Assembly: GCA_040754075.1 (NCBI GenBank)
Contig: JBFMDH010000001.1
Span: forward strand, 166,262-230,261
DNA from: Acidobacteriota bacterium
Lineage (GTDB): Bacteria > Acidobacteriota > Blastocatellia > UBA7656
Length of the DNA stretch: 64,000 nucleotides
Reading direction: 5' to 3'
In this document: positions 1,658-61,017 of the stretch, piece after piece
How the letters are laid out: every line of letters starts with the position of its first letter
Position numbering within the stretch: the stretch's first letter is position 1
The notes under the pieces: model-generated
Told to the model about the DNA's origin: nothing
The model's input: only the letters and a program-made list of their open reading frames with translations
The model's database searches: none
Program-made: the position numbers and the translations under genes

Positions 1658-1691
1658 CAGTAGGCAGCCGGCAGTAGGCAGCAGGCAGTAG
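1658..1691. repeat. heptamer tandem array (AGTAGGC-type), left arm of the inverted pair flanking the four-helix-bundle gene
   Basis: cagtaggcagccggcagtaggcagcaggcagtag. Reverse complement of 2123-2152 matches about 26 of 30 positions by eye. Confidence 0.8.
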
Positions 1692-1728
1692 ACAATTTCA
1701 TTTTTGAGTTTATTGTTTCTTACCATTT

Positions 1729-2088
1729 CTACCTTTGAAGAGAATTAGAAAGCCCGTTAATTGAACGACCAATTTCTGATGTAAGCACGATTATGTTTTG
1801 TGAAGCCTGTGGCGGCAAATAACCGAGCCTTTCAGCTATCAGTATTTGCGTTTCGACTTCGCGCAGAGAACCATAAGCGATGGAGAGAAAGTGTGCAAAC
1901 TCTCCAGCAGACTTGCGTCCTTGCCCCTCCGCAATATTAGACGGAATAGATATGGCTGCTCTGCGAAGTTGGCTAGTTAATCCATAAATCTCTTCTTTGG
2001 GAAAATTCTTCGTCTCAGAATAAACTGCTTCAACTAAATCCATAGCTTTTTGCCAGACTATTAAATCTCTGTAATTCTGACTTGCCAT
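1729..2088 (-). CDS. four-helix-bundle protein (23S rRNA intervening-sequence protein family, TIGR02436-like)
   Basis: 119 aa. YRDLIVWQKAMDLVEAVY...LTSQLRRAAISIPSNIAEGQGR is the characteristic family signature. Confidence 0.85.
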   Translation of the reverse strand: MASQNYRDLIVWQKAMDLVEAVYSETKNFPKEEIYGLTSQLRRAAISIPSNIAEGQGRKSAGEFAHFLSIAYGSLREVETQILIAERLGYLPPQASQNIIVLTSEIGRSINGLSNSLQR

Positions 2089-2122
2089 ATTGATTGAAAG
2101 TTTTAATAAACCAAAAATAAAA

Positions 2123-2152
2123 CTGCCTACTGCTTACTGCCTACTGCCTACT
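2123..2152. repeat. heptamer tandem array (CTGCCTA-type), right arm; overlaps the asd stop codon
   Basis: ctgcctactgcttactgcctactgcctact. 7 nt period. Inverted relative to 1658-1691. Confidence 0.8.
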
Positions 2153-9587: not shown

Positions 9588-9613
9588 ATGGTGATTAATA
9601 GTTCTTAGTTTAT

Positions 9614-9670
9614 AGCCCGTAGTCCGTAAGATGAAAAACGCTACGGGCTACGAACTACTGACTATGGACG
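9614..9670. repeat. short-period repeat hairpin directly downstream of the stop of the 9672-10478 gene
   Basis: agcccgtagtccgtaag ... gctacgggctacgaactactgactatggacg. agcccgtag pairs with ctacgggct. The right arm shows 7 nt periodicity (ctacggg ctacgaa ctactga ctatgga). The 15-mer agcccgtagtccgta recurs at 39651. Confidence 0.7.
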
Positions 9671-9671
9671 T

Positions 9672-10478
9672 TTAGTTCTTTAAATTTTGCTCCGCTTTCA
9701 ATTCTGCGCCATCAATTGCATCCAGATAGACCGTCCAGGATGGCGCATCGCCCAAAAGGATTTCCCAGGCGAGATGAATTTCCAGAGAATCCTTTTTAGC
9801 AACCGGCAATATAACCAATCCTTTGACGTGAACGTCTTTTAGATCATTAATGCGAAGTTGCTGGTCGTTGCCTGCCGCGTCCTTGTATGTGAACGTGCGA
9901 TTGACCAGTCGTTGTGCGGCTTCCTGGCGGTTAATCGTCGGGCTAAAGGGCAATTCGACAACCGGAATGAAACGGTCATCAAGTTGCAGCAAACGTCCGT
10001 CGTTATTGATAACCAGAGTGATTTCTCCGTATCCACCGGCGACCGGAAACGGAAAATCCGCCTGCTTGTAAGTCAAGCGATGGATGCCACCGGTATTATC
10101 GTTTTTGGTCAATGAGACCGTACCAGGTTGTGCACTTAACAACTCGCGCCATCGGTCAATAAAGCGCTTTGCCGCTTCACGAACCGGAACCGTTGTATCG
10201 CCCGTAAGCGGCGCATCGATGATTTTGATACCGCTTTCGATACCCGCAAGCGAGCGCGGCGTGTGGGTGATGGCATAAAATTGCGCCTCAGTCTCTTTCA
10301 AGTTGTACAATTCCAGCAACCGCCGCCACTCGCGTTCGGCTTGGACGAGACGTTGCGGAGAATCTTTAACGATTGCCGGATAATTTTTGGGCTTCGCACT
10401 CTTTGTTGTTTGAGCTGAAATGCTGCACCCTAACGCGCAAACAATTAAAATGGCGAGCAACGAACGAGATAAAATCAT
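9672..10478 (-). CDS. hypothetical lipoprotein / secreted protein
   Basis: Start chosen at the internal ATG giving MILSRSLLAILIVCALGCSISAQ (signal peptide with lipobox-like ALGC). No recognisable catalytic motif. Confidence 0.5.
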   Translation of the reverse strand: MILSRSLLAILIVCALGCSISAQTTKSAKPKNYPAIVKDSPQRLVQAEREWRRLLELYNLKETEAQFYAITHTPRSLAGIESGIKIIDAPLTGDTTVPVREAAKRFIDRWRELLSAQPGTVSLTKNDNTGGIHRLTYKQADFPFPVAGGYGEITLVINNDGRLLQLDDRFIPVVELPFSPTINRQEAAQRLVNRTFTYKDAAGNDQQLRINDLKDVHVKGLVILPVAKKDSLEIHLAWEILLGDAPSWTVYLDAIDGAELKAEQNLKN

Positions 10479-10884
10479 AATGAAATTACGCCCACACCGG
10501 GTGGGGATGTATAGCCGGGTGTACAACAGAAAAATCAAAAAAACAATTATTCATAATCATGGTGGGAAGTGGCAAGTGATGAAGCTAAATGTTGGTGAGC
10601 AAAATGCGCTGAAACGATTTATTTCAACGGGCGCTGAACCGGTTATTGGTAAAAAGCCGTTCTAATTCTCAATTCGGACAGCATCCCTTGAACTTTCGGG
10701 TGAACGCTATTTGCTCTCTCTCCGCCCAATCCGAGGATAAATTTTAACCTGTCGTTTACGGGCGCTTTAGATTTCGAGAGAAGACCAGAGGCTTTAAGCA
10801 GAGCGCAAGTTCTGCGTTGACCTGAGCGAATGGCAAAGCAACTTCTCAGTAACGGTTTGCGATTTGACATCGTTTCTTTTCAGT

Positions 10885-10913
10885 TTGACAATAAATTATG
10901 CGCAAAATAATAT
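10885..10913 (+). promoter_or_regulatory. sigma70-like promoter upstream of nuoA
   Basis: TTGACA (10885-10890), 17 nt spacer, TAATAT (10908-10913), about 48 nt upstream of the nuoA ATG. Confidence 0.5.
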
Positions 10914-10960
10914 GAGTGCGCTTTTAGTCACAATTCCAAATCAAAATTAAGGTTGAGCAA

Positions 10961-11380: not shown

Positions 11381-11549
11381 AATTGCGGATTGCGGATTGC
11401 CTGGATTTATAACTGGTTTTCACTTTCATGCCTAGATCACGGTTGCGCAGTAATAATGAAAGCCAGGAAAAAGAAATTGATTGATCTGCACACATCAAGC
11501 AAAGCAGAGATTTGAAAAAAGACAATCCGCATTTCGCAATCCGCAATTG
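11381..11549. repeat. inverted (ATTGCGG)n arrays enclosing a ~120 bp non-coding segment in the nuoA-nuoB spacer
   Basis: Left arm aattgcggattgcggattgcc (11381-11401). Right arm caatccgcatttcgcaatccgcaattg (11523-11549). Same repeat unit as 27362-27390 and 28280-28327. Confidence 0.8.
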
Positions 11550-14311: not shown

Positions 14312-15838
14312 TTATGCGCGGTTGCGAACATATAACTCCGTCAAATGGTTTAACCGGTTGCTCAAGTGTTCATTCAAGGCATTGGCTTTATAACGCCATT
14401 GCCAGTTGCCCTGCTGACTGGCGGGCAGATTCATTCGCGCTTCGGAACCCAGTCCCAGAATATCCTGCATCGGAATAATTGCCGTATCGGCAACCGACGC
14501 AAGTACGGCGCGAATGAAATCCCAGTGAATCGCTTTGCCGCGAGTGTTCAAATAATCCATACAGAATCGCTTTTCGGCGGCGATCTGTTCGGCGCTGCGG
14601 GTTGAACCTTCACCCGCCTTGCTGTTAAACCAACCGACCGCCGTGTCATTGTCATGGGTTCCCGTATAAGCGACCGAATGCGGAATATAATTGTGCGGCA
14701 AATCGATGTTGGCGCGGTCGCGAAAGGCGAATTGAAAAATCCGCATACCAGGAAAACCGAAACCGTCGCGCAAGGCTTCAACATCGGGCGTTATCACGCC
14801 TAAATCTTCGGCGATGATCGGGAGTTCACCCAGCATTTCATTTAATCTCGTGAACAACGCTTTGCCGGGAACTTCGACCCAGCGCCCGTTCTTGGCGGTC
14901 TTATCGCGCGCCGGAACTTCCCAGGTCGCGCAGAAGCCGCGAAAATGGTCTATGCGAACGATGTCAACCGTGTTGAATGTCGCCTGCAATCGCTCAATCC
15001 ACCACTGGAATTTTGTCGCCTGCATCTTCTCCCAGTTGTAAATCGGATTGCCCCAGAGTTGCCCGGTCTTGCTGAAATAATCGGGCGGCACGCCGGCGAC
15101 CACCAAAGGTCTGCCCTTGGCGTCGAGTTTGAACAACTCAGGATTAGTCCACACATCTGCGGAATCATAAGCGATAAAAATCGGCACATCGCCGATGATT
15201 TTGATGCCTTTGTCATGACAATAATTTTTGAGCGCCCGCCACTCCTTGAAAAACAGAAATTGAAAAAAGCGATGGGCTTCGATTTTATCGTGTAATTTCT
15301 CGCGCGCCTCATTGATGGCTTTGGCGTCGCGCAAAGCGTATTGCGGTTTCCACTTATTCCAGGCGACGCCTTTATGCTGGTCTTTCAGGGCGCGAAACAA
15401 TGCATAATCATCAAGCCAGGGGGCGGCTTCCTGTCTGAACGCCAGAAAGGCTGCGCGCAGGTCGGTGTCGGTTGATTTTTTGAAATTGCTGTAGGCTCGC
15501 TCAAGTAATCCCATTTTGTAAGGAATCACCCAGCCGAAATCGATTTTTTCAACGGGGAATTTCGGCACGCCGCGCAAATCCTGCTTATCGAGCAAGCCTT
15601 CGGCGACGAGTTGTTCAGGGCTAACCAGCAAGGGATTTCCGGCAAAAGCGGAAAAACATTGATAAGGCGAGTCGCCATAACCTGTGGGTCCCAGCGGTAA
15701 AACTTGCCAGAGGCTTTGTTCGCTTGCCGCAAGAAAATCGATAAAACGATAGGCTTCGTCGCCTAAATCGCCAATGCCGAAACGGTTCGGTAAAGATGTC
15801 GGATGAAGTAAAATGCCACTGAGTCTAGGAAAACGCAT
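14312..15838 (-). CDS. malQ: 4-alpha-glucanotransferase (GH77 amylomaltase)
   Basis: 508 aa. GILLHPTSLPNRFGIGDLG...WQVLPLGPTGYGDSPYQCFSAFAGNPLL and the RIDHFRGF catalytic region. Confidence 0.93.
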   Translation of the reverse strand: MRFPRLSGILLHPTSLPNRFGIGDLGDEAYRFIDFLAASEQSLWQVLPLGPTGYGDSPYQCFSAFAGNPLLVSPEQLVAEGLLDKQDLRGVPKFPVEKIDFGWVIPYKMGLLERAYSNFKKSTDTDLRAAFLAFRQEAAPWLDDYALFRALKDQHKGVAWNKWKPQYALRDAKAINEAREKLHDKIEAHRFFQFLFFKEWRALKNYCHDKGIKIIGDVPIFIAYDSADVWTNPELFKLDAKGRPLVVAGVPPDYFSKTGQLWGNPIYNWEKMQATKFQWWIERLQATFNTVDIVRIDHFRGFCATWEVPARDKTAKNGRWVEVPGKALFTRLNEMLGELPIIAEDLGVITPDVEALRDGFGFPGMRIFQFAFRDRANIDLPHNYIPHSVAYTGTHDNDTAVGWFNSKAGEGSTRSAEQIAAEKRFCMDYLNTRGKAIHWDFIRAVLASVADTAIIPMQDILGLGSEARMNLPASQQGNWQWRYKANALNEHLSNRLNHLTELYVRNRA

Positions 15839-25305: not shown

Positions 25306-25488
25306 ATCAGTGCCTCTTGAAATTAAATTTACCTGCAAATATAGAGCAACGATAAGGCAACCATTGTACCAGTTAAAAAAGCAGTGATGCCTGCGGAAAA
25401 ATAAGGACTTAATCACAGATGAGAGAGTTCGACTGTTGCAATAAAGCAACAACCGTGTGGTGAGCAGACACAAAAGGATTCGGAGGTA

Positions 25489-25537
25489 TTTTAACTTTTA
25501 ACTTTTGTCTTTTTAATTTTGCCTTTTAACTTTTCAT
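25489..25537. repeat. (TTTTAAC)-type heptamer array abutting the stop codon of the M20 peptidase gene
   Basis: ttttaac ttttaac ttttgtc tttttaa ttttgcc ttttaac ttttcat. Strict 7 nt phasing. A shorter related run lies at 49055-49091. Confidence 0.75.
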
Positions 25538-26950: not shown

Positions 26951-27361
26951 AATTTCTCCTTAAATAAATGGGATGAACACAAGCCAATTCCGAATCGGTC
27001 AAAAGAAGATAATTCGCCGATACAAAAAGGTCAAAGTGATGTGAGGTTTTCGCGGCATAAAATAAAAATGATTTAAAATGCCTGTAATAATTGAGGTTTT
27101 GCTGCCGAGTAAAAATGGCACACTCGTTGCTCTGGTTGAGTACGGAAGCTTGAGGCACTTGTTAAGGTGCTTTCTTACGGAGCCATCATGCGGAACCGGT
27201 GTTTGCACGAATGATTCGCACATTGCTCATCGCAATCGCGGCAGGAACCTCACCTCTTTGCGCGGATGAACAATAGTGCAACGTCTGTTGCAAAACCTAA
27301 CGAAGAAGAACCCTCTCTACTCTTTTAAGTTCCGGTACGACGCATGATGGCGCCGCTTTCT

Positions 27362-27390
27362 CAATTGCGGATTGCGGATTGCGGATTGCC
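27362..27390. repeat. (ATTGCGG)4 heptamer array, left arm flanking the GIY-YIG cassette
   Basis: caattgcggattgcggattgcggattgcc. Near-perfect inverted match to 28280-28313. Confidence 0.85.
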
Positions 27391-27492
27391 GCTGCCAACT
27401 CATTCACCTTCACTTAAATATTTAACCCCGACAACCAAACATAGACTTGCCATCGCTAACGCTAAATTTAGTGACTAAAGGTGCAAGATATT

Positions 27493-28116
27493 CTACGCTT
27501 CAAAAAGTTCAGGTAACCCATATAAAAGAACTGTAGAGGTACTATTAACTAAAAACGGTTTCTCTTCGATCCAACGAGGAGCAAGAGCCATACCTTTATC
27601 TGGAATGGTACTAATAGGTTCTTCTGCTGAATAAAGTAAATTCATAATGGCTGCTTCTATTCTTGCAAGACTTCTACGTTCAGTGTTCAAAGGAGCAAGA
27701 AATATCCGAAAAGCAGAAAGCAAAGATTCTATTGGAAGTTCCAGTTCTTGATAACGAGAGTGAAACAATTGCTTCATTTCAGGAGTATTCGTAGACTTGC
27801 CCATCCACATACCATGCCAAAGTTCAACCCTCTTACCATTTTGCAAACTCTCAGGATCAAAAATTGTATAGGTTCCTTTTCTATAAGTGGCTATGTGTTC
27901 TTTAAGTCGCTTTTTAAAGGGTCTTGTAGTCCAGCCAGCCATATAGATTAAATACCCATTATTGTGTTCAACAGTAAAAAGATAAATTCCTGATTGCTCA
28001 ACTACTGGAGATTTTAAAAACAACTCTCCTTCACAACCTTGTAAAACTAGCGGACCTTTCCATGAAAGTAAGTAACTATCATGATCAGTATCATTGAGCA
28101 TAATTTTATTTGCCAC
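27493..28116 (-). CDS. GIY-YIG nuclease-domain protein, otherwise uncharacterised
   Basis: 207 aa. SGIYLFTVEHNNGYLIYMAGWTTRPFKKRLKEH fits GIY-(x9-11)-YxG-x-T-x(5-6)-R-x3-H, as in I-TevI and UvrC N-domains. The gene is visibly AT-richer than its flanks (by eye). Confidence 0.55.
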   Translation of the reverse strand: MANKIMLNDTDHDSYLLSWKGPLVLQGCEGELFLKSPVVEQSGIYLFTVEHNNGYLIYMAGWTTRPFKKRLKEHIATYRKGTYTIFDPESLQNGKRVELWHGMWMGKSTNTPEMKQLFHSRYQELELPIESLLSAFRIFLAPLNTERRSLARIEAAIMNLLYSAEEPISTIPDKGMALAPRWIEEKPFLVNSTSTVLLYGLPELFEA

Positions 28117-28175
28117 CTATCGACACAAAGCCGCCGAACTTCTATTTGAGAGCGGCTTACAAAATAATTCGCTGA

Positions 28176-28239
28176 GGTTGAGCAAGCGGTCTTTGACTAC
28201 GTCGTTATGACTTACTTGGTTGAGCAATCGGTCTTTGAC
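28176..28239. repeat. two direct copies of a 22-mer (ggttgagcaaNcggtctttgac), 42 bp apart
   Basis: 28176-28197 ggttgagcaagcggtctttgac and 28218-28239 ggttgagcaatcggtctttgac. The reverse complement recurs twice at 61083-61129. Confidence 0.75.
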
Positions 28240-28279
28240 CGCGTAAGGAATCGCAATCAAAGACCACTTGTGCGGCGCT

Positions 28280-28327
28280 CAATCCGCAATCCGCATTTCG
28301 CAATCCGCAATTGGAAAATCCGCAATT
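28280..28327. repeat. (CCGCAAT)n heptamer array, right arm; overlaps the serS stop codon
   Basis: caatccgcaatccgcatttcgcaatccgcaattggaaaatccgcaatt. Confidence 0.85.
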
Positions 28328-33619: not shown

Positions 33620-33641
33620 CCTTTAAAAACCTCAACTCCGG

Positions 33642-33719
33642 TTATTGGTCACTGGTCATTGGTCATTTGTAGAAGGCTTGACAAATCACTAATGACAAAG
33701 GACAACTGACGAATGACTA
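33642..33719. repeat. inverted (TTGGTCA)-type heptamer arrays; overlaps the stop codon of VWA paralogue 3
   Basis: ttattggtcactggtcattggtcatttg ... caaatcactaatgacaaaggacaactgacgaatgacta. Confidence 0.75.
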
Positions 33720-34661
33720 ATAAACATACCCCTGCTTGTGATAAAGGTCGCCCTCAGCATTGAGGAGCTTGACTTTGATTTTGCGTTCTTTGCCGGTTTT
33801 ATCCTGATTGCTCGGCGTGTAATAGACCACATATTCGCGGCGCAAATCTTCTGCGACTTCGGTAAACGAACGGAATAATTCAGCCTTTTGCGAGGGCAGG
33901 AAGACCTGTCCGCCGGTGGCTTCGCAAAGCATTTCCAATTCTTTATCGGGGTCTGCTGCCACTGTGCCCGCGCCGGTGCCGGTGAAATTTTTGGTGCTGA
34001 TTCCGAAAATCGTCACATCAAAACGTTGAGCGATTTCAATGGCATCTTTCAAGCTTTTATCGCTTGCGGTATCTTCGCCATCCGAAAGAATCACCAGAAT
34101 TCGCCGCGCTTCGCTATCGGGAACCGTCGCCATTTTCTCTTCAATGACCCGATAGACGCCGTCAAACAGTTTAGTGTAGCCGCTGGCTTTCAACTGTTTA
34201 ATGGCTTTGGAAATCTGCTCCAGCGAAGCCGTGAAATCCTGATGCAATTCGACATCGGAATCGAAACTGGCGACCAGAACTCTATCCTTTCGACGATAAG
34301 AAGTAACCGTAGCTGCGAAATCATCGGCGGCTTCTTTTTCAACCGGCAGTTTGAGTTTTACGCTGTTGCTGGTGTCGATCAAAATTCCGACATTGAGCGG
34401 CAATTCGCTGGGCGATACGAATTTGTTAATCGCCTGCTTTTTACCATCTTCGTAAATTTCAAAATTCGATTGCGCCAATCCGCCCAGGAATTTGGCTTTG
34501 CGTTTTACAGTAATCGGCAGACGCACTTCGGTAATGCCGATACCGATTTGTTTGTCATCATTTTTCTTGTCCTGGGTTGGTGGCTTTTGTGAAAAAGCCA
34601 AAGCATTGGTTAAAGCAACGAAAAAGGTGACGAGAAGTGAGATTACAATGGCGCGTTTCAT
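33717..34661 (-). CDS. secreted VWA-domain protein (TIGR03436-like), paralogue 3
   Basis: Start at the internal ATG (MKRAIVISLLVTFFVALTNALAFSQ). VGILIDTSNS. VILSDGEDTAS. C-terminal HKQGYVY. Confidence 0.8.
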   Translation of the reverse strand: MKRAIVISLLVTFFVALTNALAFSQKPPTQDKKNDDKQIGIGITEVRLPITVKRKAKFLGGLAQSNFEIYEDGKKQAINKFVSPSELPLNVGILIDTSNSVKLKLPVEKEAADDFAATVTSYRRKDRVLVASFDSDVELHQDFTASLEQISKAIKQLKASGYTKLFDGVYRVIEEKMATVPDSEARRILVILSDGEDTASDKSLKDAIEIAQRFDVTIFGISTKNFTGTGAGTVAADPDKELEMLCEATGGQVFLPSQKAELFRSFTEVAEDLRREYVVYYTPSNQDKTGKERKIKVKLLNAEGDLYHKQGYVY

Positions 34662-35147: not shown

Positions 35148-36422
35148 ATGACAGTACAATCCAGTCCTATTGAAAAGACCAATCTTGCAAACGGTCTTAC
35201 CATCATCACCGAAAAAATGGCTCACGTTCGTTCCGCTTCCGTAGGCATATGGGTGCGCTCAGGGTCGCGCCACGAACAAGCGGAACTCAATGGCATTTCA
35301 CATTTCATCGAACATGCCTTATTTAAAGGCACCCAGAAAAGAAATTCGCGGCAGATTGCCGTTGAAGGCGATGCCATCGGCGGCAATGTCGATGCCTTCA
35401 CCAGCCGCGAAGTCGCCTGTTATCACTTTCGCGCTTTGGACGCGCATGTTCCGCGCGCCTTCGATTTGCTCGCCGATTTAGTGACCGCGCCGTTATTTGC
35501 AAATGAAGAACTCGACCGCGAACGCAAAGTCGTGCTCGAAGAAATCAACATGGTCGAAGACACGCCCGATGACCTGGTGCACGAAGTCTTCAATGCCAAC
35601 TTCTGGCCTAACCATCCGTTGGGTCGCTCTATCTTAGGAACCTCGGATACGCTGGCGACCTTTGATCACACTCGCGTGATGGAACATTTCAAACGCGTCT
35701 ACATCCCGCGCAATCTGGTTGTCGCGGGCGCAGGCAATATCGAACATCAAGAGTTTGTCGAAATGGTTGCCGGTTATTTCAACGATTTGCCGGATACGAC
35801 GGTTGAATTGAATAAAACCTCGCCAACCGTTGCCTGGCCGCGCATCACCATTAATAAAGAGCTGGAACAAGCGCATCTCGTGCTAGGCACCAGTTGCCCG
35901 TCGCTACTTCACCAAGACCGTTATGGCGTCAACATCCTTGCAGTGATTTTGGGCGGCGGCATGAGTTCGCGGCTTTTTCAAAGTATTCGCGAAGAGCATG
36001 GGCTTGCCTATTCGGTTTTCGCGGGTGTCAGTTCTTACACGGATGCCGGTTGCCTGTCGATGTACGCGGCGACTTCGCCTGAGCGGATGAGTAAAGCGAT
36101 TCGTTTGAGTATCGAAGAGTTCAGAAAATGCAAAGTCGAAGCGGTTTCCGAAGATGAGTTGCAACGCGCCAAAGACCAGTTGAAAGTTTCCATTATGCTC
36201 AGCCTGGAATCCTGTTCGGCGCGCATGAGCAACCTGGCGCGACAGGAGATTTTTTACGGCAAACAATTTTCGCTTGATGAAATTTTGCAACGCATTGAAA
36301 AAGTTACTGCCGATGATGTGCAACGCATCGCCAATCAGGTTTTCAACGGAAATGGTCTGGCGATGACCGCCATCGGGCAACTCGAAGATTTTGAAATCGC
36401 AGAAGACATGCTTACGGTTTAG
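35148..36422 (+). CDS. M16 family (pitrilysin/insulinase-like) zinc peptidase
   Basis: 424 aa. GISHFIEHALFKGT (inverted zincin HxxEH). Confidence 0.88.
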   Translation: MTVQSSPIEKTNLANGLTIITEKMAHVRSASVGIWVRSGSRHEQAELNGISHFIEHALFKGTQKRNSRQIAVEGDAIGGNVDAFTSREVACYHFRALDAHVPRAFDLLADLVTAPLFANEELDRERKVVLEEINMVEDTPDDLVHEVFNANFWPNHPLGRSILGTSDTLATFDHTRVMEHFKRVYIPRNLVVAGAGNIEHQEFVEMVAGYFNDLPDTTVELNKTSPTVAWPRITINKELEQAHLVLGTSCPSLLHQDRYGVNILAVILGGGMSSRLFQSIREEHGLAYSVFAGVSSYTDAGCLSMYAATSPERMSKAIRLSIEEFRKCKVEAVSEDELQRAKDQLKVSIMLSLESCSARMSNLARQEIFYGKQFSLDEILQRIEKVTADDVQRIANQVFNGNGLAMTAIGQLEDFEIAEDMLTV

Positions 36423-36429
36423 TTCTCAG

Positions 36430-36501
36430 GTAATGAGTGATGAGTGATGAGTGATGAGTTTAATACTCCCCGCTCATTACTCATTACTCATTACTCATCA
36501 C
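36430..36501 (+). repeat. inverted heptamer arrays forming a long hairpin favoured on the plus-strand RNA
   Basis: gtaatgagtgatgagtgatgagtgatgag (36430-36458), 14 nt loop, ctcattactcattactcattactcatcac (36473-36501). About 25 of 29 Watson-Crick pairs plus three G-U pairs that would be C-A mismatches on the opposite strand. Confidence 0.75.
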
Positions 36502-36509
36502 CTTAAAAG

Positions 36510-37304
36510 ATGAGAGTCATCATTCTTGGCAGCGGCAGTTCCGGTAACGCGCTTTACATTGAAGCGGGCGAAACCCGCGCGCTCGTTGACGTCGGACTCT
36601 CTGCCAAGGAGACGGCGCGACGCCTCACCGAAACGGGCATTGACCCGACACGCATCAACGCCATCGTCGTTACCCACGAACACGCCGACCACATCAAAGG
36701 CGTGCGGGTGTTTTCCAAAACCGCCAGCGCGCCGGTCTTCATTTCCGAAGAGACGCGAATGATGAGCAATTTTGGTGGCAAATCCGAAGATATACGTTGG
36801 GGACAGGTCATTACTTCAAGCGAGCCTTTTCAAATCGGTAGCCTCGATTTTCACCCGTTCACGATTCCCCACGACGGCATTGATACCTTTGCTTACACGG
36901 TTGAATCGGCGGGCGTGAAAATTGGCATCGTCACAGACCTTGGGTATATCACGCAACTGGTAGCGCAAAAACTGCTCGGTTGCAAAATGATTGTCATTGA
37001 ATCCAATCACGACCGCGATATGCTGAAAGTCGGTCCTTACCCCTGGCATTTGAAACAACGCATAGCCAGTAAAACCGGGCACCTGTCGAACGATGAAACC
37101 TCAAGATGGTTGAAAGAAGATTTCGACGGCGAGGCGGAATATATTGTGCTTGCACATCTATCGAAGCAGTGCAATCACCCGGAGCTTGCGAGACTAGCGG
37201 CATTGCAATCGCTTGGCGAACGCGGCTCACTATTTTTTCAAGACGCCGAACGCCGCGTCAAAGTCGCTGCCCAAGACCACGCGAGCGAGTGGTTTGAATT
37301 TTGA
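36510..37304 (+). CDS. MBL-fold metallo-hydrolase
   Basis: 264 aa. VVTHEHADH (HxHxDH). Confidence 0.85.
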   Translation: MRVIILGSGSSGNALYIEAGETRALVDVGLSAKETARRLTETGIDPTRINAIVVTHEHADHIKGVRVFSKTASAPVFISEETRMMSNFGGKSEDIRWGQVITSSEPFQIGSLDFHPFTIPHDGIDTFAYTVESAGVKIGIVTDLGYITQLVAQKLLGCKMIVIESNHDRDMLKVGPYPWHLKQRIASKTGHLSNDETSRWLKEDFDGEAEYIVLAHLSKQCNHPELARLAALQSLGERGSLFFQDAERRVKVAAQDHASEWFEF

Positions 37305-38360: not shown

Positions 38361-39652
38361 TTTCACGATATACACGCCCGCAAATGGGCGCGATTTGGAC
38401 AGAACAGAATCGCTTTCAAAAATGGCTCGATGTGGAAATCGCCGTCTGCGAAGTTCACGCAGAGATGGGCACGATTCCCGAAGCTGCCGTCGCCGAAATC
38501 AAACAGAAAGCGGCTTTTTCGGTTGAGCGTATCAAGGAAATTGAAACCCTCACACGCCACGATGTCATCGCGTTTACCACTGCGCTTGCTGAAAACATCG
38601 GCGAAACTTCACGCTTTGTGCATTACGGACTCACTTCATCGGATGTTGTGGATACGGCAAATGCGCTGCTGCTGCGTGATGCCGCAAAACTCATCCTTGA
38701 TGATTTAGCTCAACTCGGTGAAGCGTTGCGCCGTCGCGCCTTTGAACACAAAGACACCGTGATGATTGGTCGCACGCATGGCATGCACGCGGAACCGACG
38801 ACGTTTGGTTTAGTGCTGGCGCTCTACTTTGCCGACAATCAACGCAACCTCGAACGCCTGCGGCGGGCATTGGAAACCATCAGCTACGGGAAAATATCGG
38901 GCGCGGTCGGCACCTTCGCCAATCTCGACCCCGAAGTTGAAGAGCGCGTCTGCCAGAAACTCGGACTAAATTTCGCGCCGATTTCCACGCAGGTGATTCA
39001 ACGCGACCGCTACGCCGAATTTCTTTCAACGCTTGCCATCATTGCCGCATCAATCGAAAAAATCGCACTGGAAATCCGCCACCTGCAACGCACCGAAGTT
39101 CGCGAAGCGCAGGAGCCATTTTCAAAAGGGCAAAAAGGTTCATCGGCAATGCCGCATAAACGCAACCCGGTGACCTGCGAACAACTCTGCGGCTTATCAA
39201 GAGTGGTTCGCGCCAATGCCGGTGCGGGATTCGAGAATGTCGCGCTGTGGCACGAACGCGATATTTCGCATTCATCGGTCGAGCGCGTGATTCTCGCCGA
39301 TTCATCCATTCTGGTCGATTATATGCTCGCGAAAGCTCATTGGTTGATTGATGGGCTGGTGGTTTTCGATAAGCGTATGCGTTATAACTTTGAATCGCTC
39401 GGCGGCGTGACTGCAAGCGGGCAAATTTTATTGGAACTCACCCGCAAAGGCGTTTCGCGCGAAGATGCTTATGCGATTGTGCAACCGCTGGCGATGCGCG
39501 TCTGGGATGAAGGCGCGAAATTCAATGAACTGGTTTTACAAGATGAGCGTGTGACCGCGAAACTCACACGCGAAGAAATCGAAGCCGTTTTTGATGTCCA
39601 ACATCAATTGCGGAATGTGGAAAAAATTTTTACAAGAGTTTTTTGTCAGTAG
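38357..39652 (+). CDS. purB: adenylosuccinate lyase
   Basis: MISRYTRPQMGAIWTEQNRFQKWLDVE. SSAMPHKRNP signature loop. Start ATG at 38357 overlaps the vapC stop (ATGA). Confidence 0.95.
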   Translation: MISRYTRPQMGAIWTEQNRFQKWLDVEIAVCEVHAEMGTIPEAAVAEIKQKAAFSVERIKEIETLTRHDVIAFTTALAENIGETSRFVHYGLTSSDVVDTANALLLRDAAKLILDDLAQLGEALRRRAFEHKDTVMIGRTHGMHAEPTTFGLVLALYFADNQRNLERLRRALETISYGKISGAVGTFANLDPEVEERVCQKLGLNFAPISTQVIQRDRYAEFLSTLAIIAASIEKIALEIRHLQRTEVREAQEPFSKGQKGSSAMPHKRNPVTCEQLCGLSRVVRANAGAGFENVALWHERDISHSSVERVILADSSILVDYMLAKAHWLIDGLVVFDKRMRYNFESLGGVTASGQILLELTRKGVSREDAYAIVQPLAMRVWDEGAKFNELVLQDERVTAKLTREEIEAVFDVQHQLRNVEKIFTRVFCQ

Positions 39653-39657
39653 CCCGT

Positions 39658-39685
39658 AGTCCGTAGTTGTTTTCAACTAAGGACT
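39658..39685 (+). terminator. 12 bp stem / tttt-loop hairpin right after the purB stop
   Basis: agtccgtagttg-tttt-caactaaggact (11 of 12 pairs). No downstream U-tract, so it may act in processing or stability rather than termination. Confidence 0.4.
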
Positions 39686-39713
39686 CCAGACTCCAGACTC
39701 CAGACTCCAGACT
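39682..39713. repeat. (GACTCCA)4 heptamer array between purB and purS
   Basis: gactccagactccagactccagactccagac. Confidence 0.8.
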
Positions 39714-39722
39714 TCTTGAGAT

Positions 39723-48943: not shown

Positions 48944-49091
48944 AAGCTGACCTTGATAGCCGGCAGATTGATTTTTCGTATGCACATTACCGGGAAAAGA
49001 TTTTTGTAGCGAGCATTGACGATGAAATAACTTCACGAGGACTGATTAGCGCAGCACTTACTTTCTATTTTTAACTTTTAATTTTTCATTT

Positions 49092-55500: not shown

Positions 55501-55877
55501 ATGCCGTGTTGATTCAAGGCGTAAATGTGTTGGCGCTGGCTAAACCCGAAACCGGCGCTCACCTGTTTTACACGGCTAAAGAACAACTCGTGCCGTTGCA
55601 AATTCACGTCTTGCCGGTAATTGACCATTCCGCAGCCGCGACGATTCGCCGGTTTGCTGAAAGTCAGAAGAGGCGATTAAGCGAGCCGGTCGATACCAAC
55701 GAAACCGATTTAAACGAGGCATCGGTTATTCGGGTTTATGAAGAGAACGGCGCGACGCTTGATTTACGCTCAGGACTGATGACGCTCAAGATGCCGACGA
55801 CGAAAGAACTGCGCGCCTTGTTACTTGCGGCTTTGCCATTGCCAATGGAGATGCAATCGGTAGTCGGTAGCCGGTAG
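52551..55877 (+). CDS. atypical ClpA/ClpC-like double-AAA+ ATPase with novel N-domain and C-terminal release-factor-like module (paralogue 2)
   Basis: 1108 aa, GTG start.
- NBD1: GERLVGKT; Walker B ILYFDDLL.
- NBD2: GPTGVGKT, VLFDEIEKAH, TSNLG, GARALKRLLEREL.
- LGF at aa 635-637.
- C-terminal aa ~785-1108 is RF-like (ETGAHLF, IRVYEENGATLDLRSG). Confidence 0.85.
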   Translation: MNITLPIYIQKPAPQDTLPPTHILRPLFFPYIEVQGEDLNRAVTKLAQKIRHECDRLGKAMRHDQLSKFGFAPDLEDRFLKLTLDLGSRKAECNFLFVVMQTVGRKIAFTPALADLWFEIHRGETLVNRATEVLSHYFRQKQKREGNDALRPEAFSVSGKAWVTTLDISINPPARAPKLVQNLFALLGEAPQMDGAEELNRVGRCLDYLYPDDLQRVIFRETETEALTAILKSQDKRPVLLIGERLVGKTAIIHEYVHRAVSQRHSKFDAKNQVWLIAPQRLISGMSYVGQWENRLLAILKVAKKKQHILYFDDLLGLYQAGQSASSSLSVADVLKPYVEKREVRILGEITPEAFRVFQERDRGFADSFHLLPVKEPDEDKTFRILLHLMRELERKHRATFSTDVFPTVMDVQRRYTRDAVFPGKAAIFLQQLAVKYRHERVTRDEVLQEFHAKSGFSLNFLNDENKLTRQEVIEAVGNTVIGQEAALAACADVVSMAKARLNDPDRPLASFLFLGPTGVGKTQCAKSLAAYLYGDGDKLIRFDMNEYSSPYAVARLVGTFHQPEGLLTSAARRQPFSVVLFDEIEKAHPDVFNLLLQVMGDGRLTDALGRTVDFTNAMVILTSNLGVKEAAKNLGFHRDRERDGQVYTQAAEKFFKPEFFNRLDRIVPFARLGREEVMQIAEGLIQQVFAREGLVRRKCILQVDERAMARIVEEGYHPQLGARALKRLLERELTQPVARQLATLKPDAPTLIKVYPAASELKVTVDSLKGATLNDESARLIEGVAPKQIVELAEAAVDRIESQAAKMSPQGLINPDAVDATQLAYFQIREQARRARELCEKVAAKIKPTGKPLVSRSRGRSIAASQFTLRQVSVGDLWQRLIEAGDVRQLMRELLTTAQPYGERLEDYLSELTRETALLEVIAQSNDEVSTHQALMLIQSLDEAFKVERERLAKIYHELFTYKLGSRAELLTGNQEAAALHSDAVLIQGVNVLALAKPETGAHLFYTAKEQLVPLQIHVLPVIDHSAAATIRRFAESQKRRLSEPVDTNETDLNEASVIRVYEENGATLDLRSGLMTLKMPTTKELRALLLAALPLPMEMQSVVGSR

Positions 55878-55885
55878 CCGGTTAT
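55858..55885. repeat. (CGGTAGC)-type heptamer array overlapping the last codons and stop of AAA+ paralogue 2
   Basis: cggtagt cggtagc cggtagc cggttat. Encodes ...SVVGSR*. Confidence 0.75.
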
Positions 55886-60429: not shown

Positions 60430-60545
60430 AGTCGGCAACCGGCAACAGGCGATAGGCAGTTAAAACGCCAAATAAATCCTTTTCCTTTGAAAAATCTTTA
60501 TAAACTGAATTTTTACTGTCTGCTGTCTACTGCCTACTGCCTACT
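60430..60545. repeat. inverted GGCA/CTGCCTA-type heptamer arrays after murA (same family as 1658-2152)
   Basis: agtcggcaaccggcaacaggcgataggcag (60430-60459) ... ctgtctgctgtctactgcctactgcctact (60516-60545) followed by tttgttt. ctactgcctactgcctact is identical to 2134-2152. Confidence 0.75.
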
Positions 60546-60601
60546 TTTGTTTGACTGTACAAAGGTTCGTGTTTGATAATCGTCGCGAGGGATAATTACG
60601 A

Positions 60602-60979: not shown

Positions 60980-61017
60980 AAAAAAGCGGGGAATCATCAC
61001 CAGTCCCCGCTTTTTTT
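60980..61017. terminator. bidirectional rho-independent terminator between convergent HIT and M28 genes
   Basis: A-run, agcgggga (60985-60992), 11 nt loop, tccccgct (61004-61011), then ttttttt. Confidence 0.8.

Follow-up and report, generated by a model that had tools for sequence, protein, structure and literature searches.

Enterobacterial repetitive extragenic palindromes (REPs) and bacterial interspersed mosaic elements (BIMEs) are imperfect palindromes that lie just after stop codons in operons, where they stabilize mRNA 3' ends and set the relative expression of cistrons. Intercistronic hairpins made of heptamer repeats have been observed in cyanobacteria since 1990, and in 1997 Vioque reportedly described repeats of the short tandemly repeated repetitive (STRR) type within the gene for RNase P RNA in heterocystous cyanobacteria. 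The STRR hairpins with 7-bp units between hupS and hupL in the Nostocales have no assigned function, and roles in transcript stability or translational coupling have been proposed for them (PMC2670836). The 23S rRNA of Coxiella carries an intervening sequence (IVS) of 428 nt with a 28-bp terminal stem, an S23p open reading frame (ORF), and three tandem heptamers, GACAGAT, whose number varies among strains; this IVS is excised by RNase III, which cuts at the start of the first repeat (PMC4990558). Intergenic heptameric repeats have also been described in Xanthomonas (GGGAATC), Nostoc (GGGGAYT), and Beggiatoaceae (TAACTGA) (PMC4692102, PMC4679880). Here we describe a hairpin of inverted heptamer arrays in a 64,000-nt stretch of DNA (the window) from a soil bacterium of the Acidobacteriota. 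The hairpin lies between the genes for an M16-family peptidase and a metallo-β-lactamase (MBL)-fold hydrolase. It is a known design, the heptamer-repeat stem-loop, in a new phylum. We see about an even chance that it belongs, as a member without an ORF, to a lineage-wide class of heptamer stem-loops similar to STRRs and IVSs and that it is co-transcribed and looped out in the mRNA.

To describe the locus, we combined the ORF list with Pfam profiles, Tandem Repeats Finder (TRF), RNAfold, and a symmetric-score stem scan.

35148 to 36422, plus strand: upstream gene, M16-family peptidase (ORF list; Pfam Peptidase_M16 and Peptidase_M16_C, E values of 5e-43 and 6e-40).
36428 to 36458, plus strand: 5' arm, the G-rich arm, (GTAATGA)(GTGATGA)x3 plus flanking bases (sequence, TRF, RNAfold pairs, symmetric-score stem scan).
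36459 to 36472, plus strand: loop TTTAATACTCCCCG (sequence; RNAfold pairs one further base at each end, which leaves 12 nt unpaired).
36473 to 36503, plus strand: 3' arm, the C-rich arm, (TCATTAC)x3 and then (TCATCAC) (sequence, TRF, RNAfold, stem scan).
36510 to 37304, plus strand: downstream gene, MBL-fold hydrolase (ORF list; Pfam Lactamase_B_2 and Lactamase_B).

A spacer of 87 nt separates the TAG stop codon of the M16 gene (36420 to 36422) from the ATG of the MBL gene (36510). The 5' arm is AGGTAATGAGTGATGAGTGATGAGTGATGAG and the 3' arm is CTCATTACTCATTACTCATTACTCATCACCT, and the 14-nt loop TTTAATACTCCCCG lies between them. TRF detected the unit ATGAGTG at 36433 to 36459 (3.9 copies) and the unit CTCATTA at 36473 to 36498 (3.7 copies), both with a period of 7 and 100% matches. 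When the whole spacer was folded with RNAfold, the plus strand formed 31 pairs (4 + 27) with an A·C 1x1 loop as the sole interruption, and three G·U pairs all lay inside the 27-bp run. The original prediction had placed here a hairpin paired over about 29 nt that ended 8 nt before the MBL start codon. We confirmed the hairpin and found that its arms are longer, giving a 31-bp helix. The full stem starts 5 nt after the M16 stop codon and ends 6 nt before the MBL ATG; the figure of 8 nt follows from the slightly shorter arm used in that prediction. The minimum free energy (MFE) of the plus strand was −46.0 kcal/mol (z = −11.7), and none of 200 shuffled sequences folded equally well. The minus strand reached −36.7 kcal/mol (z = −6.9) and contained three C·A 1x1 loops. 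The energies of the two strands are thus not equivalent, with the plus strand more stable by 9.3 kcal/mol.

It had also been claimed that three of the four mismatches place G opposite T, and this held when we counted them (three G·T and one A·C). The reverse complement of the 3' arm reads (GTGATGA)(GTAATGA)x3, versus (GTAATGA)(GTGATGA)x3 in the 5' arm. Because of this unit composition, all four non-Watson-Crick positions fall at one position of the repeat unit. We concluded that the four mismatches are one or two events spread by array homogenization and not four independent events. A search of the 64-kb window for the arm pattern with up to 2 mismatches returned this locus plus one chance match only.

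Like the STRR hairpins at hupS-hupL in Nostoc and Anabaena, the M16-MBL hairpin consists of inverted arrays of tandem 7-bp units, and it occupies an intercistronic site whose position is conserved among related species. Arrays of this type also flank genes for four-helix-bundle (S23p) proteins in cyanobacterial plasmids. In contrast to STRRs, the hairpin is found in a Blastocatellia-like member of the Acidobacteriota and not in a heterocystous cyanobacterium, its unit (GTGATGA/GTAATGA) is locus specific and not among the few genome-wide STRR units, and its stem occupies the whole spacer from stop to start. We take the unit GTGATGA not to be a rotation of the STRR1 to STRR3 units; the unit GGTCATT of another window array (33640 to 33667) is a rotation of the STRR2 unit, TTGGTCA. 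We concluded that the hairpin is STRR-like but not an STRR sensu stricto.

The hairpin also resembles the S23p-type 23S rRNA IVSs of Coxiella burnetii and Leptospira, which have a long inverted-repeat stem (28 bp in Coxiella) with heptameric repeats. Those IVSs have an optional PF05635 ORF in the loop and are regarded as selfish insertions that are removed or tolerated at the RNA level (PMC4990558). In contrast, the M16-MBL hairpin lies in an mRNA spacer between protein-coding genes and not in helix 25 or 45 of 23S rRNA, it has no ORF, and its loop is only 14 nt. Another element of the window, at 1658 to 2152, does carry IVS-type PF05635 cargo, with a 405-nt loop between paired arms, which is close in size to the 428-nt Coxiella IVS. 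The hairpin shares with REPs and BIMEs the position just after a stop codon inside an operon. REPs, however, have one genome-wide consensus, are spread by REP-associated tyrosine transposases (RAYTs), show no 7-nt periodicity, and have much shorter stems, whereas the M16-MBL arms have no second copy in the 64 kb. With the heptameric repeats of Xanthomonas, Nostoc, and Beggiatoaceae, the hairpin has in common a period of 7, an intergenic bias, rapid variation at conserved positions, and occasional inverted pairs. Those repeats are mostly direct arrays of one genome-wide unit, in two cases G-quadruplex prone, whereas inverted pairing and a locus-specific unit are the hairpin's own traits.

We compared the same junction in relatives of the window. 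The closest relatives of the MBL protein come from metagenome-assembled genomes (MAGs) of Blastocatellia/Acidobacteria (74 to 88% identity). The comparison covered the M16-MBL junction of the window, four genomes (L001 to L004), and three metagenomes (L081, L083, and L084), with MBL identities of 67 to 88%. Because arrays of differing units and lengths align unreliably, we compared the orthologous hairpins by folding each sequence separately. We found a strongly folding heptamer hairpin at every readable M16-MBL junction (8 of 8; z, −5 to −11). The stem base lies 0 to 11 nt after the stop codon and 0 to 7 nt before the start codon; the exception is L001, in which a second array follows the stem and the distance to the start is therefore 23 nt. 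Loop lengths vary between 12 and about 180 nt. The units form three related groups: ATGAGTG (window), ATGAATG (L083), and ATGAAGT/ATGAACG (L001); GGACTAA (L002), GGACTAC (L081), and GGACTGA (L003, which also has a GCGATGA unit); and CAGTGGC/T (L004 and L084). This is the pattern that a single inherited hairpin would show if its unit had drifted and then been re-homogenized in both arms. On a Vicinamibacteria outgroup contig (L005), the same gene pair has about 7 nt from stop to start and, by inspection, no hairpin. Given this short, hairpin-free spacer, we concluded that the hairpin is an insertion into an ancestrally short spacer.

The L002 spacer (9652 to 10000) is 349 nt long and contains, along with its heptamer stem and 180-nt loop, further strong hairpins that are not heptameric. 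Inverted repeats of 23 to 28 bp that resemble those of this spacer are also present in L002 at 10809 to 10914, 14575 to 14674, and 14887 to 15190. Their recurrence suggests a second dispersed palindromic family.

About eleven loci in the window contain heptamer arrays. Using a strand-symmetric stem scan, we found 17 hairpins with period-7 arms in 250 kb of Acidobacteriota loci, compared with 7 in 2.04 Mb of other loci, which are the non-Acidobacteriota loci retrieved in the same searches. The density is about 20-fold higher in the Acidobacteriota loci. Period 7 was essentially the sole enriched period (17 of 18 periodic hairpins). Four relatives of the hairpin in the window are as follows.

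1658 to 2152, minus strand: cargo-bearing relative, inverted (GGCAGTA)n arrays at 1658 to 1706 and 2112 to 2152 around an AT-rich ORF (1729 to 2088, PF05635), between asd and the aspartokinase gene (TRF, stem scan, profile match).
9594 to 9665, minus strand: degenerate heptamer hairpin between two minus-strand genes (stem scan; −27.8 kcal/mol and z = −5.6 for spacer 9588 to 9671).
11381 to 11548, plus strand: stem of (ATTGCGG)n/(CAATCCG)n arrays around a 128-nt loop, filling the nuoA-nuoB spacer (TRF, stem scan, annotation).
27357 to 28318, minus strand: arms homologous to those of 11381 to 11548, with an AT-rich 207-amino-acid (aa) ORF (27493 to 28116) inside, next to serS (stem scan, arm comparison).

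We surveyed placement in the window and 14 Acidobacteriota loci. Heptamer hairpins were present in 31 of 166 co-directional spacers, in 2 of 29 convergent spacers, and in none of 31 divergent spacers (Fisher's exact test, P = 0.0025). Both hairpins in convergent spacers directly follow a gene for the PF05635 IVS protein (IVP). Most stems begin close to the stop codon of the upstream gene, at −7 to +19 nt relative to it. Because of this restriction to co-directional spacers and the placement at stop codons, a role at the mRNA level is plausible. We also found that the 5' arm contains more G than C in 29 of 32 heptamer hairpins from the window and the Acidobacteriota loci. Having the G-rich arm first was considered as a test of orientation relative to transcription and dropped, since an inverted repeat reads alike on both strands. 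The polarity is intrinsic and strand symmetric and is not relative to genes.

The main rival explanation is that these hairpins are neutral by-products at the DNA level. According to this explanation, heptamer microsatellites form and grow by replication slippage in non-coding spacers, intramolecular template switching (quasipalindrome correction) generates inverted copies and maintains their complementarity, and the result is functionless and harmless. Among the long simple-sequence repeats of many bacteria, heptamers are the commonest, which has been ascribed to polymerase slippage (PMC4679880, PMC4692102). Internal homogenization of each arm with periodic mismatches, fast turnover of the unit among relatives, the unpaired or decayed state of several window arrays, and a G·U versus A·C strand bias that is weak or absent all agree with such an origin. 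It is harder to reconcile with a strongly folding hairpin retained at all eight M16-MBL junctions despite complete turnover of the unit, or with hairpins that are found almost only in co-directional spacers, never in the 31 divergent ones, and are tightly placed at stop codons. Nor does undirected slippage predict a G-richer 5' arm in 29 of 32 hairpins. We therefore regard a purely neutral origin as somewhat unlikely, while keeping it as the first alternative.

We next consider the cargo-bearing relatives. The ORF at 1729 to 2088 matched PF05635, "23S rRNA-intervening sequence protein," and the four-helix-bundle family TIGR02436 (E values of 1e-40 and 6e-39). The same IVP cassette is present at the asd-ask junction in relatives (L161 and L163 to L166), and the IVP homologues that we examined are 68 to 81% identical. 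Further IVP sites include a second site in L161, L167, L168/L171, L170, a Phycisphaerae BREX locus (L175), and L185. We found that inverted heptamer arrays, mostly with the unit GGCAGTR, flank all 7 independent sites (the window plus 6 metagenomic sites; L161, 12369 to 12864; L167, 9934 to 10467; L168, 9960 to 10479; L170, 9962 to 10393; L171, 9960 to 10409; L175, 2964 to 3434; and L185, 9845 to 10441). In plasmids of cultured bacteria (loci L186 to L193), inverted heptamer arrays surround the PF05635 gene in 6 of 8 cases, namely, in Nostoc edaphicum, Anabaena sp. 90, Calothrix brevissima, Nostoc punctiforme (with a short downstream array), Geminocystis, and Riemerella. The two exceptions are Pseudanabaena, with direct heptamer arrays, and Gemmatirosa (Gemmatimonadota), with direct 8-mers. 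Array-flanked PF05635 genes occur in Acidobacteriota, Planctomycetota, Cyanobacteria, and Bacteroidota, and their neighbors are housekeeping or defense genes, as in cas6-IVP-cas4 and brxC-IVP-pglX. At 13 of 14 independent sites, the cargo points in the same direction as the gene upstream of it. Within the asd-IVP-ask element, L161 and L163 differ by a compensatory change, U-A to C-G, in the part of the inner stem that is not repetitive.

Full-text literature searches returned no description of heptamer hairpins for Acidobacteria, which is an absence of a match and not proof of novelty. The same searches returned no association of S23p/PF05635 with heptamers beyond Coxiella, again an absence of a match and not proof. 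Several database IVP ORFs (P0118, P0063, and P0050) start inside the upstream array and have artefactual N-terminal repeats of 7 residues; one example is EWRVESG x3, translated from (GAGTGGA)n.

The two window elements at 11381 to 11548 and 27357 to 28318 have near-identical arms, which share the irregular unit CATTTCG and the outer AATTG boundary. Their loops are unrelated: one is 128 nt and non-coding, and the other is 896 nt, has a GC content of 37 to 39%, and contains the 207-aa ORF. We found 31 homologues of this ORF, and it matched no Pfam or NCBIfam family. We ruled out that the heptamer arms are the own ends of an element of the 207-aa gene, since its homologues in L172 and L174 have no heptamer arms.

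Paired arms around unrelated loops bear on another rival explanation, in which the inverted arrays act as single-stranded DNA (ssDNA). They would terminate an element that is mobile or competent for recombination, or form a landing pad for one, and would be recognized as a one-strand hairpin like integron attC sites or IS200/IS605 ends. Cargo such as the IVP gene would be carried in the loop or move into it, and the M16-MBL copy would be an empty site. Besides the two window copies just described, this explanation would account for the AT-rich, foreign-looking loops and for the recurrence of the same GGCAGTR arms around IVP genes whose many junctions are unrelated. With ssDNA energies, the strand asymmetry is just as evident, and the G-rich-first polarity fits the inheritance of defined ends. 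However, we saw no transposase or recombinase beside any copy. The units vary by locus with no single consensus, the GTGATGA arms occur only once in the window, and the M16-MBL copy has been kept by vertical descent and is not a recent insertion. We consider an ssDNA element unlikely, and such an origin would be compatible with an RNA-level effect after insertion.

The original prediction took the G·U pairs of the plus strand, which become C·A mismatches on the minus strand, as a sign that the hairpin is selected as an RNA and not as a DNA structure. This argument failed. With DNA energy parameters, the plus strand was again more stable (−20.8 versus −17.9 kcal/mol). The asymmetry tells which strand folds better and not whether the element acts as RNA or DNA. 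The argument is weak for this reason and also because one variant of the unit, copied at the period of the array, accounts for all three G·U pairs. It is further weakened because the orthologous spacers divide 5:3 between the strands. For the eight orthologous M16-MBL spacers, the sense minus antisense MFE values were −9.3, +1.5, −18.4, −3.0, +10.5, −3.0, −5.9, and +8.0 kcal/mol.

A wider strand test used 34 non-identical heptamer hairpins with an assignable direction of transcription, from the window and 18 related loci. With one sign per hairpin, G·U exceeded A·C by 15 to 8 (sign test, P = 0.21). Counting mismatch cells gave 44 G·U versus 26 A·C (P = 0.04), but periodic copies dominate this count, one locus contributing 9 and two window loci 3 to 4 each. 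For the arms alone, ΔΔG was negative in 22 hairpins and positive in 12 (median, −1.5 kcal/mol; Wilcoxon test, P = 0.043, uncorrected for orthology). Both the cell count and the Wilcoxon result are inflated by periodic copies and orthologues. In this underpowered test, the other arrays show a weak trend at most, which is neither clearly a consistent bias nor clearly the lack of one. Transcription-linked C-to-T deamination of the non-template strand would yield the same sign without selection, and since it could mimic the trend, the G·U argument is weaker still. An RNA helix of this kind tolerates G·U pairs, yet they are poor evidence for it. We concluded that the G·U asymmetry is too weak to show that the hairpin acts as RNA. 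The predicted role in the mRNA stays plausible on the evidence of placement.

A hairpin in this position could instead be a terminator, an attenuator, or a translational repressor that stops RNA polymerase after the M16 gene or masks the ribosome-binding region of the MBL gene. At −46 kcal/mol, the helix is very stable, and 6 nt separate its end from the ATG, which puts its 3' arm inside the ribosome footprint. For one case in cyanobacteria, pausing or termination at STRR hairpins has been suggested (PMC2670836). However, a promoter and terminator scan called nothing at the hairpin, and no U-tract follows the stem on either strand (the tail is CUUAAAAG). The genome does have a canonical bidirectional intrinsic terminator at 60980 to 61016, between convergent genes, whose perfect GC-rich stem of 13 bp has an A-run on one side and a T-run on the other (AAAAAAGCGGGGA...TCCCCGCTTTTTT). 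Given this ordinary stem-plus-U terminator, the heptamer hairpins are a different thing. Hairpins of the same type are also found at nuoA-nuoB and asd-aspartokinase, where termination would be costly. Occlusion of the ribosome-binding site, as originally suggested, was not supported: the 6 nt between the stem and the MBL ATG contain no Shine-Dalgarno-like motif that could be masked, and such motifs are uncommon in the window (18 of 57 crude gene starts). Taken together, a terminator or repressor is very improbable. In Rfam, we found no match at the gathering threshold and no rRNA in the window. The sub-threshold matches of the hairpin, on both strands, were to generic long hairpins (miRNA precursors) only.

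Our preferred reading, an STRR- and IVS-like stem-loop that is looped out in the mRNA, builds on the structure, family, placement, retention, and cargo link that we observed. According to this model, the element would have entered the ancestrally very short spacer of the conserved M16-MBL pair and would have been kept there through about 30% protein divergence. The 7-nt unit would turn over via replication slippage that homogenizes each arm, with the arms remaining complementary. The hairpin would be co-transcribed with both genes and would fold in the mRNA as a 31-bp helix. At the base of this helix, the stop codon of the M16 gene, 5 nt ahead of the stem, and the start codon of the MBL gene, 6 nt beyond it, would be brought together. 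The 76-nt insertion would thereby be looped out, and the cistrons would be effectively adjacent, with coupling preserved; this would explain why the element is tolerated or even used. A near-perfect helix of such length is also the type of substrate that RNase III cuts, and cleavage would split the cistrons into segments with their own stabilities. By analogy with the excised IVSs, cleavage of the hairpin by RNase III is likely. We regard the hairpin as probably a substrate for RNase III or an insertion that preserves coupling.

Several observations weigh against this reading. Co-transcription, folding in vivo, and cleavage by RNase III are steps that we infer. The strand test, which might have separated RNA from DNA, gave a weak trend at best, and the complementarity of the arms could be upheld by DNA template switching without selection. 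About half of the heptamer arrays in the window do not fold. Four spacers (39653 to 39722, 25474 to 25537, 33620 to 33730, and 60470 to 60601) fold like shuffled sequences (z, −1.1 to +1.6), and therefore array growth does not need pairing. At the purB-purS junction, the window has two arrays (39645 to 39713), (GTCCGTA)x3.3 and a perfect (GACTCCA)x4.6, which are not complementary (spacer z, −1.1). In contrast, a true hairpin is present at this junction in four relatives (L001, 13328 to 13397; L002, 13250 to 13326; L082, 2193 to 2271; and L083, 12239 to 12344). It appears from these sequences that the hairpin kept by the relatives has decayed in the window or that one of its arms was replaced. 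Homologues of the 207-aa cargo occur elsewhere without heptamer arms. When we searched the loops of ORF-less hairpins with 120 IVP proteins by tblastn, we found no remnant; the only matches were translated heptamer arrays at the N termini of over-called IVP ORFs. The loops of the ORF-less hairpins therefore give no support for descent from a cargo-bearing element.

The hairpin makes a question testable, since its position has long been retained while its sequence turns over completely, its stem is placed strictly from stop to start codon within operons, and the same stems are physically linked to the gene family of the RNase III-excised 23S rRNA IVSs. If the link to IVSs is true, it offers a concrete and testable mechanism, which is RNase III processing or coupling-preserving looping-out, and one explanation for three repeat phenomena that were described separately. 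A broader and tentative proposal, to which we give a modest chance, is that heptamer stems are the hallmark of one widespread and hitherto unrecognized IVS-type class of selfish stem-loops. This class would comprise PF05635 (four-helix-bundle, S23p/bAvd-like) cassettes and ORF-less derivatives, occupy harmless looped-out sites (intercistronic spacers directly after stop codons and the helix tips of structured RNAs, such as 23S rRNA), and be handled in the RNA by RNase III. It would unite cyanobacterial STRRs, 23S IVSs, and the acidobacterial hairpins, with S23p having a role in making or maintaining the arrays. The link of heptamer stems with PF05635 cassettes across phyla is more notable than the M16-MBL hairpin itself. 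For genome annotation, the lesson is that hairpins of this kind should be read neither as terminators nor as riboswitch-like regulators.

Some window arrays are solitary and have no inverted partner: TTTTAAC at 25489 to 25534, ATTTTTA at 49067 to 49091, CGGTAGC at 55853 to 55882, and an ACTGCCT-like array at 60512 to 60545. A ClpB-like ORF extends with its 3' end into the CGGTAGC array. The array at 60512 to 60545 has the unit of the IVP cassettes and may be a remnant of such a cassette.

Sporadic heptamer hairpins were also found outside the Acidobacteriota. They are present in Clostridia MAGs (L019, 18837 to 19061; L032, 14283 to 14511; and also L020 and L056) and in Desulfatirhabdium (L006, 3962 to 4083), where the hairpin is again formed by heptamer arrays. 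The units of these hairpins are GAGTGAA/GAGTTCA and GGTTCTT. The loops of L019 and L032 have a conserved segment in common, GGATTGCCACGGCCTTCGGC.TCGCAATGAC.

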